From Octopus vulgaris (lineage: Eukaryota): a stretch of DNA of 64,000 nt. The notes below the pieces were generated by a model, which did no database searches, was not told the origin of the DNA, and worked only from the letters and a program-made list of their open reading frames with translations. The stretch's first letter is position 1, and every line of letters begins with the position of its first letter. Positions 4,855-58,850 of the stretch are shown one piece after another. The stretch spans positions 150,784,001 to 150,848,000 of the forward strand of contig OX597815.1 of assembly GCA_951406725.2 (NCBI GenBank). The letters are read 5' to 3'. Position numbers and translations under genes: made by a program.

Positions 4855-4967
4855 ATATATGCAGAAATATATGCGACCAACTTTAGAACCTTTTGCAGAA
4901 ACAAAAACTCGTCCAACTACCAAAATCGTTAGACATGTGCTTTGGTCCAAGAATTTAACAAACATTT

Positions 4968-5150
4968 AACTGGTCATCACCACTCCATTTAGTGAAAAAG
5001 AAATCTGGTGATTATAGACCTACTGGAAACTATAGACGACTCAACGCTATTACCATTCCAGATAAGTATCCTATACCAAATATCCAGGATTTTGCAACTT
5101 CTCTGCATGGTTGCACTATATTCCCAAAAATAGATTTCATACAAGCATAC
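4968..5150 (+). pseudogene. Ty3/Gypsy reverse transcriptase fragment
   Basis: WSSPLHLVKKKSGDYRPTGNYRRLNAITIPDKYPIPNIQDF...IFPKIDFIQAY, the classic Gypsy RT N-terminal motifs; truncated at (TATG)n. Confidence 0.9.
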
Positions 5151-5164
5151 CTAGCTACCGTTAC

Positions 5165-5195
<31 letters not shown>

Positions 5196-6051
5196 TGTAT
5201 GTATGTATGTATGTATGTATGTATGTATGTATGTATGTATGTACGCATGTATGTATATATGCATGCATGTATGTATGCATACATTCAGATTTGTATTTTT
5301 TGCTTTATGTATGTATTCTCATGCATATAGTTGCCTATCTAGACATGCTCTGTGTTTGTATGTATGCATTTATGTAAGTATGTGTGTATGTATGAAGGAC
5401 CCCTACATTTCGTTAGAACTTTCTTCTAGTGGAAGGTAGACTCCCGTATAAATAAACCTAAGTATAGTTGGTTTCTCATCGTCTCAGCATTTGTTGTGCC
5501 GCTGATTGTGTTAAAGGCTTGGATCAGTGTTGTGTACCTTTATCCACTCAAAACCAGTTCCCTGACCTACTGTTTAGAAAATGCTCTTACTCCATTGCAA
5601 GTTACTTTCTACTATTTATTTATTTATACTCACGAACATCACCAATGAGATAACCATAACAGCTGAGACAAGTTGGAGGTGTTTGCTTGTGAGAAGATGC
5701 CGTAGACGGAACCGTTTGCAAGGCATCGGCTAATTTAGTCCCCGCTGTCCCGCAGAGGCGAAGAGCATAGACTTAAGGGCGATATGTTGAAACACTTGTG
5801 ATAGCTTTTGTCACCATCAAGAGCCATCTGGAGATATTAAAATGGTCACACAAATTGACAAGTTTAATTAATTCGACATGGTTTCTAAATTTTTATGTAT
5901 GTCCAATACTCTACGAAGACAGAGGAGTTGCAGAGACGTAAACTACGTTTTTGTCTCTTATTAATAAAAATAGGGGCAAAAACTGCCTCGTATTTTCCAG
6001 TTCTTGAACCGCAGGTCGAATGTAAATATATGATATATGAAATTTAAAATG

Positions 6052-10919: not shown

Positions 10920-11748
10920 CTTTTTATCACAAGTTTTGTTGGAGCACCTGGAGTATTGCATGCGTAGCGGGCTTACTTACTAACTGCAGGCTACGGTGCC
11001 ATACTATTCGTTCTTTTCAGCTGTCTAATACTTTCCTGATTATTCTGGCCGTGCCAAGGAGGCAAATCTTTTGTACCTGTTCTACTGGGCACTCTGTTCC
11101 AATTTCTTTTATATTCCACTTGATACCTTCTCATACTGTTCCCAAGGACCCAGCAATAATTGGCATTATTTTCCCCTTCTTCATTTTCCATAGCCGGGAT
11201 ATGAGATTTGTATCTGTCTATCTTTTCACCTTCCTTCTTCGCTATTCGTGTGTCAAAGGGGCATGCAACGTCAACTGTATAGCATATATGGTGCACCTTG
11301 TCCACTACCACTAGATCCGGTCTGTTATGCTCTAGCACCTGATCTGTTTGGATCGGGAAATCCCAGGGGATTATCATAGTCTCCGATTTCGCCACTCTCT
11401 GCGTCTGTGCTCATACAATGTCTTGTTTCTCTCTAACCCTTACTGCTTTCACAGTTTCCAATGTAGCACTTTCGTTACCTGGTCGTGTCGCCACAGCTTG
11501 TAATGGTTTCGGGCAAGTCTAGAACATTCGGTCGTGATATGGACAATGTTTCATCCACTCTATTGCAGATGCGGCACAGCGGAGACACTTGCTCATTCTT
11601 AATTGACTGTGTAGTCCCTTCTTTCGTAATCCTTCTTCACGTCCTTTTTGTACATCTTCCTTTGTTTTTCTTTTTTTTCTACTTTCAATACTCCCTCGAT
11701 CCTAGCTGTCATTAACATGGTTTCCTTACTGTGGGCTAGGTATCTCAT
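10920..11748 (-). mobile_element. R4/Dong-like LINE 3' portion (zinc knuckle plus RLE), third subfamily, frameshifted
   Basis: SPLCRICNRVDET...RHDQV..LHWKL, then WDFPIQTDQVLEHNRPDLVVVDK...VDVACPFD. Confidence 0.85.
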
Positions 11749-11833: not shown

Positions 11834-12339
11834 TTCACTAGTTATATTTTTATAGTGTGCTTTCACTTCATTACCGAACACAGCTCTGTGTGCCTTGGAT
11901 ACGTGCTGTGTTTTGTTTTGATGCTCTGATGGTTACTGTATTGAAAGTGTTTTGCGTAGGATGTGGGCAGTGCCCAGGAAGCCAATTCTCTGTATGTTAT
12001 ATGTGTTTGTAAGTCCTGGTGTCTTGGTTATGTATTTGTCTGAATATTTTTTAATCATGCCTAATGCACCTACTATGATAGGAATTGTTTCTGTTTTTAG
12101 ATTCCACATTCGAGTTACCTCTATTTCCAGGTCTTTGTATTTTGAAAGTTTCTCCATTTCTTTTAGAGTCACGTTGTCATCTTCTGGTATTGATACATCA
12201 ATTAGAAAGCATTTTGCTTCTTCATGATCTCTGACAACTATATCTGGTTTGTTGGCTTTAATTTCTCTATCTGTGTGTATTGGCATATCCCAGAGAATGG
12301 TTGCTTCCTCGTTTTCTGTGACCTTTTCTGGTGTGTGCC

Positions 12340-12340
<1 letters not shown>
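11834..12340 (-). mobile_element. R4/Dong-like LINE 3' end with an intact RLE domain frame
   Basis: ORF 11933-12286: MPIHTDREIKANKPDIVVRD...FLIDVSIPEDDN..KEMEKLSKYKDL; PD..D..K RLE signature. Confidence 0.9.
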
Positions 12341-12423
<83 letters not shown>

Positions 12424-12447
12424 TATTATTATTATTACTATTATTAC

Positions 12448-12497
<50 letters not shown>

Positions 12498-12643
12498 CTT
12501 CTTTCTTAAAATTTTCTTCTATTTCTCGCAGAGTGTTTTCCGTACACCTAGGGCAGAGAAGCTCATTGTATGCATTCCCAGATTACACACACAAATTCAC
12601 ATTATTATTAATTAGTAGTACTAGTAGTAGTAGTAGTAGTAGC

Positions 12644-14309: not shown

Positions 14310-14660
14310 TTAATAAATAAAACATATGCATATATACATACATATATGTACGTACCTACATCTATATGTATATATACATGCATATATGGGTACAGGACAC
14401 CAAAAAAACGTCGAACACAATGAGAAACGAAAACATAAACACAAAACCAAGAAAATGGACATTTTTCTTAAACAACGAAAAGATAGAGTACAAGACATGC
14501 AACACAAGGAAAATTCCCCTTCTTCAGCCGCCTCTGTTTCATCTACTCCGCGGTTCGAAGGTAAAGGCGAGACACGACTTCATGGAAACAGTCCTTCCCG
14601 CAAAAGCAGATTAAATAAAATTTGCGATTTTTTTACGGAGGGTTAAAAATGGTAACATAT
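14310..14660 (-). mobile_element. Repeat family B (paralog of 54415-54885), probable PLE 3' end carrying a permuted HHR motif
   Basis: About 340 bp reverse-complement homology to 54545-54885; flanked by TA-rich tracts. Confidence 0.7.
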
Positions 14661-36928: not shown

Positions 36929-37175
36929 TTTTTACTTGTTATATATTGTTTATTTCTTTTTGTACTTTTGTGATCTAGTTATATGCTTTATAAAATATTT
37001 TATTTTTTCTTTGTGATTTGGTTTATGTCTATCATTGTTTGAATAGCATAATAGTGGTTTTTCTCTGATTTATATATATTATGTATATATATATAAATAC
37101 ACACACACACACACACACACACACGTATATATATAAATGAAAACTTCACTAAGTACAAAACGTGCACGCAGGACA

Positions 37176-37280
37176 GACACAGAAGGACCGTAATTCTTCA
37201 TCAGTTATCGACCGAAAATAGTAAAGCTCAGTTTTGTGCCTTTAACGATAAGACTGAGAACTTCGTATATCGGCGGGACC
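37176..37280 (-). ncRNA. Non-circularly permuted hammerhead-like motif (G12 mutated to A)
   Basis: CUCAG-UC-UUAUCG...GGCAC-aAAA-CUGAG...CGAUAA-CUGAUGA; stem I (6 bp) and stem III (5 bp) are perfect. Confidence 0.65.
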
Positions 37281-37963
37281 TGCAAGATACACATACATAC
37301 ATACATCCATACATACATACAATAACGATGAGTATATAGCGATAAATTATCCAAGCGTGTACCATAGAAACTCCAGGTTACAACTAACTGCATCAAGTGG
37401 TAACAAACATCAATCATCTCTTAGTATGACCAATGCTACTGTAATTCCAATGATGGTAAATCCGGGTTCGCTTTGCTGGGCTTTAAGCATTTTTGGGAGT
37501 GTAAATCCAAAACAATTAAAAAGAATACAGAGACTGGTACATCTAAATTTTTTTCTTATAATTTAACTGTTAATACTTTTAGAGACAGTTGGTAAACTAT
37601 GTGTGCGTGAAGTTAAAATACATAATAATGAAAATGGTAACAGAATAGTGACAAAGGAGTCTACGGGAAAACGGGAAAATATACAATGAACGTCAACACG
37701 CTCAACCTCTCATCAGATGCCGATCAAATACTATAACAATTTCGACGCCTCCTGATAATATTACTCAAATTGGCGAGTCAGCAGCTTTACGCTGCTGACG
37801 GGATAAGCATAGAGATACCACAGACGAACAAGAATTGAGAAAAATGGTGAAACAAGAATCAAGAACAGTAACAGATAATAAGGTCTGTCGAGCAAACAAG
37901 GAGTATAGTGATGGATTGCAGTAAGAACGGGAAAAGTGCAATATATATGTTTGTGCGTGTGTA

Positions 37964-38020
<57 letters not shown>

Positions 38021-38415
38021 CGTTTGTCCCTCCTCTCTCTCTCTCTCTCTCCTCTCTCTTCCTTTGCTTCTCTTTCTTTTCTTTTCCCTCTTCTCTGTCA
38101 CGTGACTGTTGGCCGAAATCTGCCTTTCAGCTCCTGACCTCGTCCTGTTAACATCGCTGTTTTCGTCCGCCGCTATAAAGGCTTTTTCCATTGCGCCAGA
38201 GAAAAATTTGTTTGCTTGTTATCAGTCGTAAGACACTGTTGTTTTCACCGTTAATGCTTCTGTATTTCATGTTTCTGTATTCCATTATTGTTTTTTGTTT
38301 TTTTATATCTGTCCCTTTTGCTGTCCTGGTGTTCGTATGCATTCGATCCTTCTTCCAGGAAATCTACGCTTCCAGCTTAGTTTTTCTAATGCTCGTTGCT
38401 TAGTTTTTCTTGGAG

Positions 38416-38507
38416 GGCTGGCCGTGATCTAGTAATCTCAAGATTAATCAGCCGAAATTACTACGATGATCCGGTTCTTGACTGAGGACTGAGGGTTTCG
38501 AATGTCC
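38416..38507 (+). ncRNA. Non-circularly permuted hammerhead-like motif, intact core
   Basis: GGCUG..UAGUAA-UC-UCAAGA..CAGCC-GAAA-UUACUA..UCUUGA-CUGAGGA; three perfect helices of 5-6 bp; within repeat ~38095-38580 that ends in (TA)n. Confidence 0.75.
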
Positions 38508-38576
38508 TGTCCGTGTTTATTGTATCGTCTTCTAAGAGTTATACGTTCTTGTCCATGTTGTATTTTTCTACATACC

Positions 38577-38621
<45 letters not shown>

Positions 38622-40374: not shown

Positions 40375-40959
40375 TTGTGTGTGTGTGTGTATATACATGT
40401 ATATATATATATATAGATAAATATATATATATATGTATATATATATAAGCATACACATAATTATGCCCACGCACACACCCACACTCACACACTCACAATC
40501 CGCTTATTTCTCATTTTGATTCCTAACAAAACACCCCTGAAGGGTAAATACGTTAAGCGCGCATATATTTCTCTGTGTATTTGTCTTTTGTCCGTGTTTT
40601 ACGACTGGGATTGACAACTCATATTTATTGTATTATACGTCCAGACTGAGACAAATCGTGACCTATGCGGTCGAATCGGTATGAAGCTGTCAGGATATCT
40701 CCGTACAGATATATATATAAATAAACCTTTGTGTGTGTGTGTGTGGTATTAGAAAAATATTGCACTCTCTATACAGACTTTTATCAGAAATGTTTGTCGA
40801 GCACTTTTCTATACTTGGACGAAAATCATAAGGAAAATATAAAATATTTGTTTGAGAGAGAGAGAAATAAAGATGGGGATAAAGAGAAAGGAAAGAGGGG
40901 AGAGAGAGAGAGACAGACAGAAATAAATTGAAAAATGTAAACGGACAGACAAAGCAGGT

Positions 40960-41009
<50 letters not shown>

Positions 41010-41032
41010 ACCTGCTTTGTCTGTCCGTTTAC

Positions 41033-42015: not shown

Positions 42016-42228
42016 GTGAAATAGAAAGATGAATAATCTTGTAGTAGATTAATCAAAAGTTTAACCGATACCTTAGTAGCAAAAATCACAGCAGTAAACA
42101 GCACGGTTGGAGGTACAACCATATGGTGTTGCAACCGTGCGTTGGTGCGGATAATTGAAATTAAAACATTATTGGTGAATTGAAGAAATGGAGCTGAACG
42201 CAGATTGAACAGAAATCGTTTTATTTCA

Positions 42229-42308
42229 TTCTACACGTGTTTCGAAAGGCACAAATGACCAAATTCCGATTGAATAATGGGACCATATTGTGTCTTTCTC
42301 TTCAGGAA
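42229..42308 (-). ncRNA. Minimal type I hammerhead ribozyme in the PLE pLTR
   Basis: UUC-CUGAAGA-GAAAGACACAA...UUGUGCCUUUC-GAAA-C(ACGU)G-UA-GAA, followed by AAUAAA. Confidence 0.9.
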
Positions 42309-42902
42309 GAAAATAGGAAATCCGTTGGAAAAACAAAAACAGAACAGAGGCGGAGCAAAAACAAATCGAACTATGCTCCTAAGAGCCCATGGCGAAACTG
42401 TTTATCAGTGTATGTTGAGAACCGGTGGCTGAAGAATTTAACGGGTCAGGCATCGGTCAATCATGTGGGTGAGGGTGTGTAGGTGTTCTTTGTGACCGAG
42501 AATAAAGTTCTGACTATTTAAGGAATATTGGATGTTTTATAAGGGGCGAGAAAAAATCTACTTAGAGACGTGTGTGTGTGTATACTGTTCTATATATGTG
42601 TGTGTTGGCGTAGGGGTAGAAAACATTTTTTGTGTACGTGTGTGCGTTTGATCGTTCGGCTGTCAGTGGCTACTGCCGTCAGAACCGTTGGGCGGCAGAA
42701 AAAAAATATATATATATTATGTTTTATGTGTGTGTGTGTTCATCTAAGCCTGCCTTGTCAAGGAAACCCCCCGCTGTGAAAAAACCAAGCCCCGTTTGTC
42801 TTACAGGAGTAATTCCCCTTGCAGTGGTTAATCGTAGATATCTTAAAGGCTATTTCAGAATTTGTTACCAAGGGCTATGGGTGCCGGTATTATTTATAAA
42901 CG

Positions 42903-44060
42903 CTATTTAAAAGCCAGATAAGTGTAGCGCCGCCAATGGGGGCATCGAAAAGCCGACTGTAAAAGCCCATTTACCATCCGGCCTCTGGCAAACAAAATAT
43001 GGAAGAGTTCGGAGACACAAAGGTTGCACTGCCTTCTGCCCCTATCAAATGGGAGGGCCACCGACAAAATTGACCATTCCAGCCTGTAGCTTAAGTTCGT
43101 ATCCTTCAGTCGCCATATTAGCTTACTGAGTCCCGTGGTCTGGCGCTTGTTCATGTCCCGAAAAGTTGCGTAATGGTTGGAGACACGCAAAGACAATCTT
43201 GAGGATGAGGCCCCTACATAAGTGAAGACATCTGAGTCCGTGTAAACCTTGCATTTGTAGACGGCGTTTTTGATCTTGGAGTTCGCCGACGTGAATCTTA
43301 TTCTGCTAGGATTAGTTTCTGAAATTAGAACTGCGTTCCTGTCACTATATTCGTTCCGAGACCTGCAGCCGCTTACTACTCTATTTTCCACTACGTCACT
43401 ATTAACTATAGGAATAACCCCTGATTCTCCACTATCTATCAGAGTGCTGTCATTGCTACTGCCCGTGGTGCTGCTATTGCGGGAAATGATGCTGGGGATG
43501 CTATTGGGGCTCTCTACCCTACTCCCATTGTTACCGTCAACCACAACACCCCTATTTATAACTATACCCCTAGTGGGTACTCCCTGGCTGGAGCTGAGAT
43601 TATGTGTCACTGTACTGGCTCTCATATCATTATTACTACTATAACTATTCCTACTGAGCATTAAACCGGGAGCGGAAGAGGCTGTGCCTCCGGAAAAAGG
43701 TGATAGGGTCTTAGTAAGTAGCCTATTATTATGGGAGGCGATTATCTGGGCGAGGTTTTTAGTGTTGGAGAAAGCTATCCTAACTTTATGCGAGTTAACC
43801 GTGGAGTAATATTTGGAATTTCTGGGGAAGTTATTGGCGATGGCTTGTCTAAACATGAGGGGGAGGTTAGTTCTAATCTGCTTACCAAAGGGGATTACAA
43901 ACCATATATGCTTATTCCTATCAGTGTGATGGGTCGGGACGCCAGCTCTCGCGTTCGGGTGGGTGATTCTCGGATGAACAACGGGTCTTGGGTTAGTGTA
44001 AGACCTCCCGGACCGATAATTATCCTTGTTCGCTAAATTAAATGCGGGAGCGACTACCCC
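42903..44060 (-). CDS. PLE ORF C-terminal part: RT thumb/linker plus GIY-YIG endonuclease (Naiad-like)
   Basis: Frame stays open from the inversion junction past the listed start at 43856; HIWFVIPFGK..TN, SHNNRLL, AVYKC...YVG...R..NH...WSIL...CNLC.SE...N...CPH. Confidence 0.9.
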   Translation of the reverse strand, partial: GVVAPAFNLANKDNYRSGRSYTNPRPVVHPRITHPNARAGVPTHHTDRNKHIWFVIPFGKQIRTNLPLMFRQAIANNFPRNSKYYSTVNSHKVRIAFSNTKNLAQIIASHNNRLLTKTLSPFSGGTASSAPGLMLSRNSYSSNNDMRASTVTHNLSSSQGVPTRGIVINRGVVVDGNNGSRVESPNSIPSIISRNSSTTGSSNDSTLIDSGESGVIPIVNSDVVENRVVSGCRSRNEYSDRNAVLISETNPSRIRFTSANSKIKNAVYKCKVYTDSDVFTYVGASSSRLSLRVSNHYATFRDMNKRQTTGLSKLIWRLKDTNLSYRLEWSILSVALPFDRGRRQCNLCVSELFHILFARGRMVNGLLQSAFRCPHWRRYTYLAFK

Positions 44061-44066
44061 GGGGTA

Positions 44067-44381
44067 GTAGGGGCCTCATCCTCAAGATTGTCTTTGCGTG
44101 TCTCCAACCATTACGCAACTTTTCGGGACATGAACAAGCGCCAGACCACGGGACTCAGTAAGCTAATATGGCGACTGAAGGATACGAACTTAAGCTACAG
44201 GCTGGAATGGTCAATTTTGTCGGTGGCCCTCCCATTTGATAGGGGCAGAAGGCAGTGCAACCTTTGTGTCTCCGAACTCTTCCATATTTTGTTTGCCAGA
44301 GGCCGGATGGTAAATGGGCTTTTACAGTCGGCTTTTCGATGCCCCCATTGGCGGCGCTACACTTATCTGGCTTTTAAATAG
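44067..44381 (+). pseudogene. Inverted duplicate of the GIY-YIG C-terminal ~100 codons
   Basis: Translation identical to the end of the minus-strand ORF. Confidence 0.9.
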
Positions 44382-44974
44382 CGTTTATAAATAATACCGG
44401 CACCCATAGCCCTTGGTAACAAATTCTGAAATAGCCTTTAAGATATCTACGATTAGCCACTGCAAGGGGAATTACTCCTGTAAGACAAACGGGGCTTGGT
44501 TTTTTCACAGCGGGGGGTTTCCTTGACAAGGCAGGCTTAGATGAACACACACACACATAAAACATAATATATATATTTTTTTTTCTGCCACCCAACGGTT
44601 CTGACGGCAGTAGCCACTGACAGCCGAACGATCAAACGCACACACGTACACAAAAAATGTTTTCTACCCCTACGCCAACACACACATATATAGAACAGTA
44701 TACACACACACACGTCTCTAAGTAGATTTTTTCTCGCCCCTTATAAAACATCCAATATTCCTTAAATAGTCAGAACTTTATTCTCGGTCACAAAGAACAC
44801 CTACACACCCTCACCCACATGATTTACCGATGCCTGACCCGTTAAATTCTTCAGCCACCGGTTCTCAACATACACTGATAAACAGTTTCGCCATGGGCTC
44901 TTAGGAGCATAGTTCGATTTGTTTTTGCTCCGCCTCTGTTCTGTTTTTGTTTTTCCAACGGATTTCCTATTTTC

Positions 44975-45054
44975 TTCCTGAAGAGAAAGACACAATATGG
45001 TCCCATTATTCAATCGGAATTTGGTAATTTGTGCCTTTCGAAACACGTGTAGAA
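44975..45054 (+). ncRNA. Minimal type I hammerhead ribozyme (inverted arm copy)
   Basis: Same motif as 42229-42308 on the opposite strand. Confidence 0.9.
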
Positions 45055-45112
45055 TGAAATAAAACGATTTCTGTTCAATCTGCGTTCAGCTCCATTTCTT
45101 CAATTCACCAAT

Positions 45113-58359: not shown

Positions 58360-58452
58360 AAAATTCGTGGCCTTTTTTCCTCAATCAAGTACCAGAAGTC
58401 ACGACCTTTTCGGGCAGTTACACTTAAGACGGTTCGATCTGGTTGTCCCCCA
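58360..58452 (-). ncRNA. Non-circularly permuted hammerhead-like motif, degenerate
   Basis: GGGACA-ACCAGA..ACCG-UC-UUAAGU..UGCCC-GAAA-aGGU..UCUGGU-ACUUGA-uUGAGGA; within repeat 58263-58660. Confidence 0.6.
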
Positions 58453-58850
58453 AAAAATCTAAGCTAAGAGTGTTAGACCGCTTTGTAAAAAAGCTAGTAA
58501 ATGTGTACGGAGACAAAAAAAACACGGAGAACATGGTACACAATTACGAATAAAAACAACCAGAAAATAACAAGTGTCTTTCGACTGAGAACGAATCCAG
58601 TTGAGCAGGCGTGTATGAAGTGAACGCCTAAAGGTAGGAACATAGGAGATAGACATAAGAGGTTATATATATATATATATATATATACTCGACGGGATTA
58701 TTTCAGGTTCCGTCAACTAAATCCACTCACAAAGCTTTGGTCGGCCGAACGCTATAGTAGAAGACACTTGCCCAAGGTTCCATTAAGTGGGAATTAACCC
58801 AGAACCATGTGGTTGGGAAGCAATCTTCTTACCACACAACCCCTCTTACG

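Follow-up and report, generated by a model that had tools for sequence, protein, structure and literature searches.

The window, a stretch of 64,000 nucleotides of Octopus vulgaris DNA, was taken from a genome of 2.8 Gb in 227 contigs in which (TA)n is abundant. It holds five copies, from four families, of a motif whose strands can be arranged as a hammerhead ribozyme of permuted order. The copy analysed here belongs to a family termed F3 and consists of the following parts:

37133-37288, minus strand: decayed, 5'-truncated F3 copy of about 155 nt with microsatellites on both sides; the family unit is non-coding and about 740 nt long
37279-37275, minus strand: stem II 5' strand (G10.1 side), placed at the 5' end, GUCCC (family form GUGCC)
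37274-37270, minus strand: P4 5' strand, GCCGA; P4 corresponds to the helix of stem I-II interaction in type-SGC hammerheads as given in the accessible text of PMC10085705
37246-37258, minus strand: block S, with stem III strand CUCAG (37258-37254), UC (U16.1-C17, 37253-37252) and stem I strand UUAUCG (37251-37246)
37227-37240, minus strand: block G, with stem II 3' strand GGCAC (37240-37236), AAAA (37235-37232) and stem III strand CUGAG (37231-37227)
37198-37215, minus strand: P4 3' strand UCGGU (37215-37211), stem I strand CGAUAA (37210-37205) and core CUGAUGA (37204-37198)
37176-37197, minus strand: weak hairpin AGAA..UUCU (37197-37181) after A9, plus GUGUC, an alternative stem II partner

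Every segment quoted in the first-pass annotation was located on the minus strand, with coordinates running from 37279 to 37181, and the pairing was as claimed, with 6 bp in stem I, 5 bp plus an A-U in stem III and 5 bp, including one G-U, in P4. By analogy with other hammerheads, cleavage is predicted between 37252 and 37251. CUGANGA adjoining stem I was present in the copy and GAAA between stems II and III was absent, the tract at 37235-37232 reading AAAA where the family has GAAA (G12A at 37235). In addition to this loss of G12, which had been pointed out before, a second lesion was found, as GUCCC in place of GUGCC leaves a C-C mismatch in stem II. To judge by these letters, the window copy is probably a catalytically dead fossil, and because it is broken in stem II as well as at G12, natural intact copies are better test material.

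A genome search with F3 gave 885 candidates, of which 40 were scored; these contained 43 matches, with identities of 84-91%. Comparison was made over 29 rows, corresponding to 28 distinct other copies (L003 and L006 are one copy). As had been anticipated, other copies carry G12: the position was G in 25, A in two and C in one of the 28, so that GAAA is present at the level of the family. The central G of GUGCC was found in 25 of the 28 rows covering that column, and C in none of them. The catalytic core was intact in 16 of the 28 distinct copies (17 of 29 rows, with one duplicate), and one stem III pair appeared across the 29 rows as U-A in 15, C-G in six, U-G in two and as a mismatch in six. 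CpG decay, which had been offered as the reason for the loss of G12, was not borne out as a special cause, with C/G mismatches amounting to 42 of 518 at CpG versus 91 of 1091 at non-CpG positions.

Chance complementarity within a repeat would fit the window copy taken by itself. Nested folding of the F3 motif gave nothing unusual (z 0.44), and the copy failed a strict four-helix descriptor because its stem II is broken; the descriptor gave one match in the window, in a copy of family F2, and none in 100 dinucleotide shuffles. The case against chance therefore rests on the F3 family and not on the single window copy. That the topology is not a product of chance, as the first-pass annotation had argued, is upheld by the 43 F3 matches and by covariation of four helices across families, which already contradicts this explanation; pattern controls, a comparison with viral loci and the F2 junctions described below speak against it too, leaving it hardly credible. 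The fold is invisible to nested folding and to Rfam, which is to be expected of a double pseudoknot. Rfam gave no match at E<=10 at the F3 copy and no pertinent one for the F2 copy, which is intact, and for the whole window it returned microsatellite miRNA-like matches, among the matches listed (150 of 380).

Besides the F3 copy, four further copies of the motif were found in the window:

38416-38488, plus strand: F2, young, with an intact ribozyme predicted to cut after 38437; the copy spans about 38016-38580 and the unit is 855 nt
14441-14645, minus strand: F1 copy, GAAC in place of GAAA
54554-54757, plus strand: older F1-like copy, core intact, P4 decayed
58408-58573, minus strand: decayed F6-like copy, from a further family, core lost

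The youth of F2 is seen in its 40 scored matches, all of which are 99-100% identical, out of 2436 candidates; for F1 there were 2508 candidates, and in either case candidates do not equal copy numbers. F2 sequence was also present in contigs under two other organism labels. A core-word pattern gave 310 matches versus 13 for reversed controls, and the 30 pattern loci that were fetched added several further families, to a total of about ten by manual grouping on helix sequences. The F3 copy had been introduced as the third family with the permuted order; the permuted hammerhead order holds, whereas the count does not, there being about ten families instead of three. Copy number is roughly of the order of 10^4, a weak estimate from three copies in 200 kb of spaced samples.

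The motif has the order site-GAAA-CUGANGA, a non-circular one that Eckert et al. 2023 call 'type-SGC'. From 5' to 3' it consists of the stem II 5' strand, P4, a stem III strand, UH, a stem I strand, a linker of 3-6 nt, the stem II 3' strand, GAAA, a stem III strand, P4, a stem I strand and CUGANGA. Sequence and covariation show that it is a circular permutation of type-SGC whose ends fall between A9 and G10.1, that P4 closes stem III, and that stems I and II are pseudoknots. As in a hammerhead, the UH site lies between stems III and I and is accompanied by three covarying helices. Covariation was analysed in an alignment of 28 sequences from about nine families, namely 22 of the 30 pattern loci and six references. 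F1-type rows, which MAFFT misaligned, and 5'-truncated or badly decayed rows were left out, and F1 was tested in anchored scripts only. Of 530 cells, 84.9% were paired versus 29-46% for slid partners. All four helices change on both sides, as do 15 of the 19 pairs, a pair count equalled in 45 of 500 shuffles; cells with changes on both sides numbered 114 versus 44.6 when shuffled, and none of the 500 shuffles was as high, although kinship inflates this shuffle control. Stem II was the weakest helix (75.7% paired); G10.1-C11.1 was present in 18 of the 28 rows, and one family group seems to need a bulge. That independent helix sequences give the same permuted topology, noted at first for this window, is thus confirmed by helix covariation across about ten families.

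The assignment of the upstream strand to stem II has one competitor. If the order were that of ordinary type-SGC and a hairpin had been inserted between A9 and G10.1, stem II would use the downstream GUGUC, and the upstream strand would be a decoy or a switch. For F3 alone this downstream partner is a live alternative: GUGUCU pairs with GGCAC (6 bp with a G-U), and its -6.9 kcal/mol compares with -8.3 kcal/mol for the upstream strand of the family and with only -2.3 kcal/mol for that of the window copy, in which the downstream pairing is the better one. Other GGCAC-type copies, the families to which GUGUC as a partner is confined, have downstream partners of 4-5 bp, and the F1-type CCUUC could wobble-pair with the G run after A9. 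Across families the balance is reversed. With 13 representatives picked by hand, 61 of 65 Watson-Crick pairs form with the upstream strand, while the strand directly after A9 gives 20/65 and 22/65, which is not significant (p=0.23 for 20/65). The 30 pattern loci comprise everything fetched with a pattern that takes no account of stem II; eight of them have an upstream partner that is perfect over 5 bp (permutation mean 1.2, p=1.5e-4), and downstream windows stayed at chance (1/30 and 0/30). At least 11 of 15 Watson-Crick pairs were formed at 18 of the 30 genome loci versus none of 120 viral loci that match a similar pattern. The idea of a conserved hairpin following A9 was rejected, as it is not kept across families. 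Furthermore, P4 comes directly after the upstream strand and has its partner in front of stem I; in the accessible text of PMC10085705 the stem II strand of published type-SGC hammerheads adjoins the interaction helix in the same way. From the upstream pairing and this adjacency the motif is understood as an SGC hammerhead re-opened between A9 and G10.1, and the ordinary order with a downstream stem II is improbable.

Two further regularities were observed around the core. A CC(U/G)UGU-like word recurs 15-35 nt after CUGANGA in families with unrelated helices and is overlapped by 37176-37197 (minus strand) of the window copy; a G precedes G10.1 in 11 of the 13 representatives.

To describe the elements that carry the motif, the units and insertion ends of F1, F2 and F3 were compared. 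The units are non-coding and pyrimidine-rich (F3 about 740, F1 819, F2 855 nt), that of F2 with 43% U and 41% of its bases paired in the circular MFE. Complete non-coding tandem units with one hammerhead each exist, as in retrozymes. A second direct copy was found at 9 of 26 distinct F2 loci, and F3 loci had an inverted partner in 5 of 29 cases and a direct partner in one. The 3' end of F2 is fixed, at (TA)n, while F3 has two alternative ends, separated by about 45 nt (16 short, 11 long, two read-through; the long ends include L020, which is flank sequence). Thus 5' truncation, partial tandems, inverted partners, a tail and an AT-rich target, the marks of Penelope-like elements (PLEs), are all present, and no ORF with RT plus GIY-YIG was found in the element at F1-F3 loci and pattern matches. 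A donor-like word GT(A/G)AG follows the 3' end in F1, F2 and F3, and a CACGTG word lies inside the unit; we infer for these words an intron role and a promoter role.

If the ribozyme cuts its own transcripts, insertions made from the cleaved RNA should begin at the scissile bond. For F2, ends were mapped with a query wholly 3' of the site, which gave 26 independent insertions from 30 loci. These have a common 3' end near +143; 10 of their 26 5' ends fell at 0 to +17, four of them at 0 and none at -1 to -18. A junction pattern covering -17 to +13 with microsatellite-flanked 5' ends was then evaluated among the matches listed (100 of 1441), which were collapsed by hand to 23 places on contig 1, four of them in common with the 26 insertions. 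All 23 junctions among these listed matches lie at 0 to +12 and none at -1 to -17, with an ambiguity of 1-2 nt from AT-microhomology (p about 1e-8 under a uniform null in which neither length nor microhomology bias is allowed for). In the simplest reading the template's 5' end is the scissile bond, and the ends of young F2 insertions thereby suggest, indirectly, cleavage in vivo. The pile-up was seen for F2 only; in F3 copies found with a 3' query, 5' starts read by eye were scattered, with few near the cut. Contigs from four runs tell of no more than the presence of the sequence; a depth step at the ribozyme was discarded as a sign of expression, as it also occurs in a probable DNA run and is partly due to subfamilies.

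The same boundary could arise if the fold were kept for binding of a protein or the RT, with no cleavage, and the 5' boundary were a transcription start or an RT stop. AT-rich microhomology at +5 to +10 could draw F2 junctions to this region, and in the accessible text of PMC11167929 the one PLE tested in vitro could dispense with hammerhead cleavage for insertion. Against this, all catalytic letters are conserved over about ten divergent families, the F2 boundary coincides with the predicted scissile bond, the AT-containing stretch just upstream of the cut holds 0 of the 23 junctions among the matches listed, and a stop of the RT should fall on a helix's 3' side and not at position 0. A role in binding without cleavage is a very poor candidate, and there is a high chance that the superfamily is catalytically real.

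Taken together these results suggest that the window copy is a dead copy of a retroelement that resembles retrozymes and is non-autonomous, and that a self-cleaving hammerhead with a new connectivity is present in its active members; we assign to this reading a probability of roughly three in four. In the life cycle that we propose, tandem units would be transcribed and the ribozyme would cut after C17, for which the support is indirect. A helper RT, most likely Penelope-like, would nick (TA)n DNA and prime internally, at a constant position some 120-145 nt 3' of the cut. Cleaved RNA copied to run-off at its 5' end would give short inserts starting at the cut, the pattern shown for F2, and copying of uncleaved multimers or ligated circles may give the longer partial tandems.

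Other retroelement remains, and an inverted repeat, occur in the same window:

42165-44075, minus strand: 5'-truncated Penelope-like element, with what we take, by its motifs, to be the end of a GIY-YIG-like ORF; an inverted part lies at 44049-45110 (plus strand)
42226-42311, minus strand: classical minimal type I hammerhead with palindromic loop 3 in the 3' region of the element, a weak Rfam match (E 0.65)
near 44975-45060, plus strand: second copy of the classical type I hammerhead
40942-41027: perfect inverted repeat surrounding a (TA)n tract
10991-11410 and 11933-12505, minus strand, and 4959-5330, plus strand: fragments presumably resembling non-LTR and Gypsy-type retroelement proteins

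Pfam gave no match for the ORF at 42165-44075. A classical PLE hammerhead lies 5 kb from the F3 copy. When the F1-F3 units were compared with the 3' regions of PLE ORFs at 64 loci, which cover only some of the PLE families of the genome, no homology was found except for separate neighbouring insertions, and no permuted ribozyme lay behind the ORFs at these loci; neither did such a motif lie behind the ORF in a young RT plus GIY-YIG family or at 30 GIY-YIG loci. An SGC-like contiguous match at L145, antisense inside a GIY-YIG ORF, has overlapping and G-U-rich stems and was taken as chance. A young two-ORF PLE family (L121-L124; 557 aa plus a 775 aa RT/GIY-YIG protein) has many identical copies and no CUGANGA in its 3' region. 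In other PLE families (L131, L136, L140) the 3' regions hold repeated TGACGTC, CCAAT-like and CACGTGAC words; TGACGTC, the CCAAT-like words and CACGTGAC are possibly promoter modules.

The identity of the helper leaves room for a variant in which the ribozyme is as proposed and the helper is a LINE or a Naiad-type PLE, or in which the units are detached pLTRs of autonomous elements. The PLE families examined show no sequence link to the units, and Naiads are described in the accessible text of 10.1101/2021.04.23.441226 as microsatellite-biased and without detectable hammerheads, which a permuted motif would explain. On the other side, no PLE ORF is continuous with a unit in the F1-F3 loci and pattern matches, complete tandem units without coding sequence exist, and enzymes of the PLE type in general are indicated by the tail, the inversions and the partial tandems. 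The two F3 3' ends about 45 nt apart resemble the PLE tail, which, in the accessible text of PMC11167929, marks two internal priming sites. We regard this variant as doubtful, though not negligible, and retain a non-autonomous element with a Penelope-like helper.

Compared with known systems, the motif shares with type-SGC hammerheads, as far as the accessible text of PMC10085705 describes them, the site-GAAA-CUGANGA order, a short stem I-II linker, a helix that links stems I and II at their far ends, and the full core. It differs in that the stem II strand and the joining strand are at the 5' end, so that CUGANGA is not contiguous with stem II. Within that same text, Eckert et al. 2023 report type-SGC (HRIMA-1 and a variant) from metatranscriptomes only, with none from genomes of known organisms except a GCS candidate, whereas the present motif occurs as genomic repeats in an animal. 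They also assume that CUGAnGA cannot be interrupted from stem II, which follows directly or after one U, and their descriptors demand this, allowing an insertion of 1-2 nt at most. PLE hammerheads keep an extra nucleotide at the A9/G10.1 junction (PMC4209133, accessible text). With metazoan non-LTR retrozymes (Cervera and de la Pena 2020; PMC7229834, accessible text) the elements have in common non-coding tandem units with one hammerhead each and a proposed mobilisation by PLEs. Those retrozymes are 170-400 nt, highly self-paired and carry type I hammerheads, while the octopus units are 740-855 nt with a permuted ribozyme and are found mostly as short truncated copies. Unlike PLEs, which carry minimal type I hammerheads in the accessible text of PMC4209133, PMC11167929 and 10.1101/2021.04.23.441226, they lack an RT/GIY-YIG ORF and have another topology and a full stem III. 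In the accessible literature that was searched there was no report of such wiring or of SGC hammerheads in animals, and no precedent for a hammerhead opened at A9/G10.1; the passages of PMC10162972 contained nothing pertinent.

In its widest form the interpretation, which we consider reasonably probable, is that an active hammerhead opened at A9/G10.1, four-block and outside the six permutations thought possible, drives a superfamily of large retrozyme-like elements that is old, has diversified, is active to this day, numbers thousands to tens of thousands of copies and was missed by descriptor searches; by the literature searched it would be the first hammerhead of non-circular permutation known from a cellular genome. 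Identical wiring might be hidden in elements reported without hammerheads. Natural short test substrates with compensatory variants exist, and the F2 junctions, as a putative record of cleavage and internal priming in vivo, bear on the role of the hammerhead in the Penelope-like cycle. If the interpretation is true, the rule, as stated, of contiguity between CUGANGA and the stem II strand would be broken, and non-circular hammerheads would move from soil metatranscriptomes to animal chromosomes, with a biological job.
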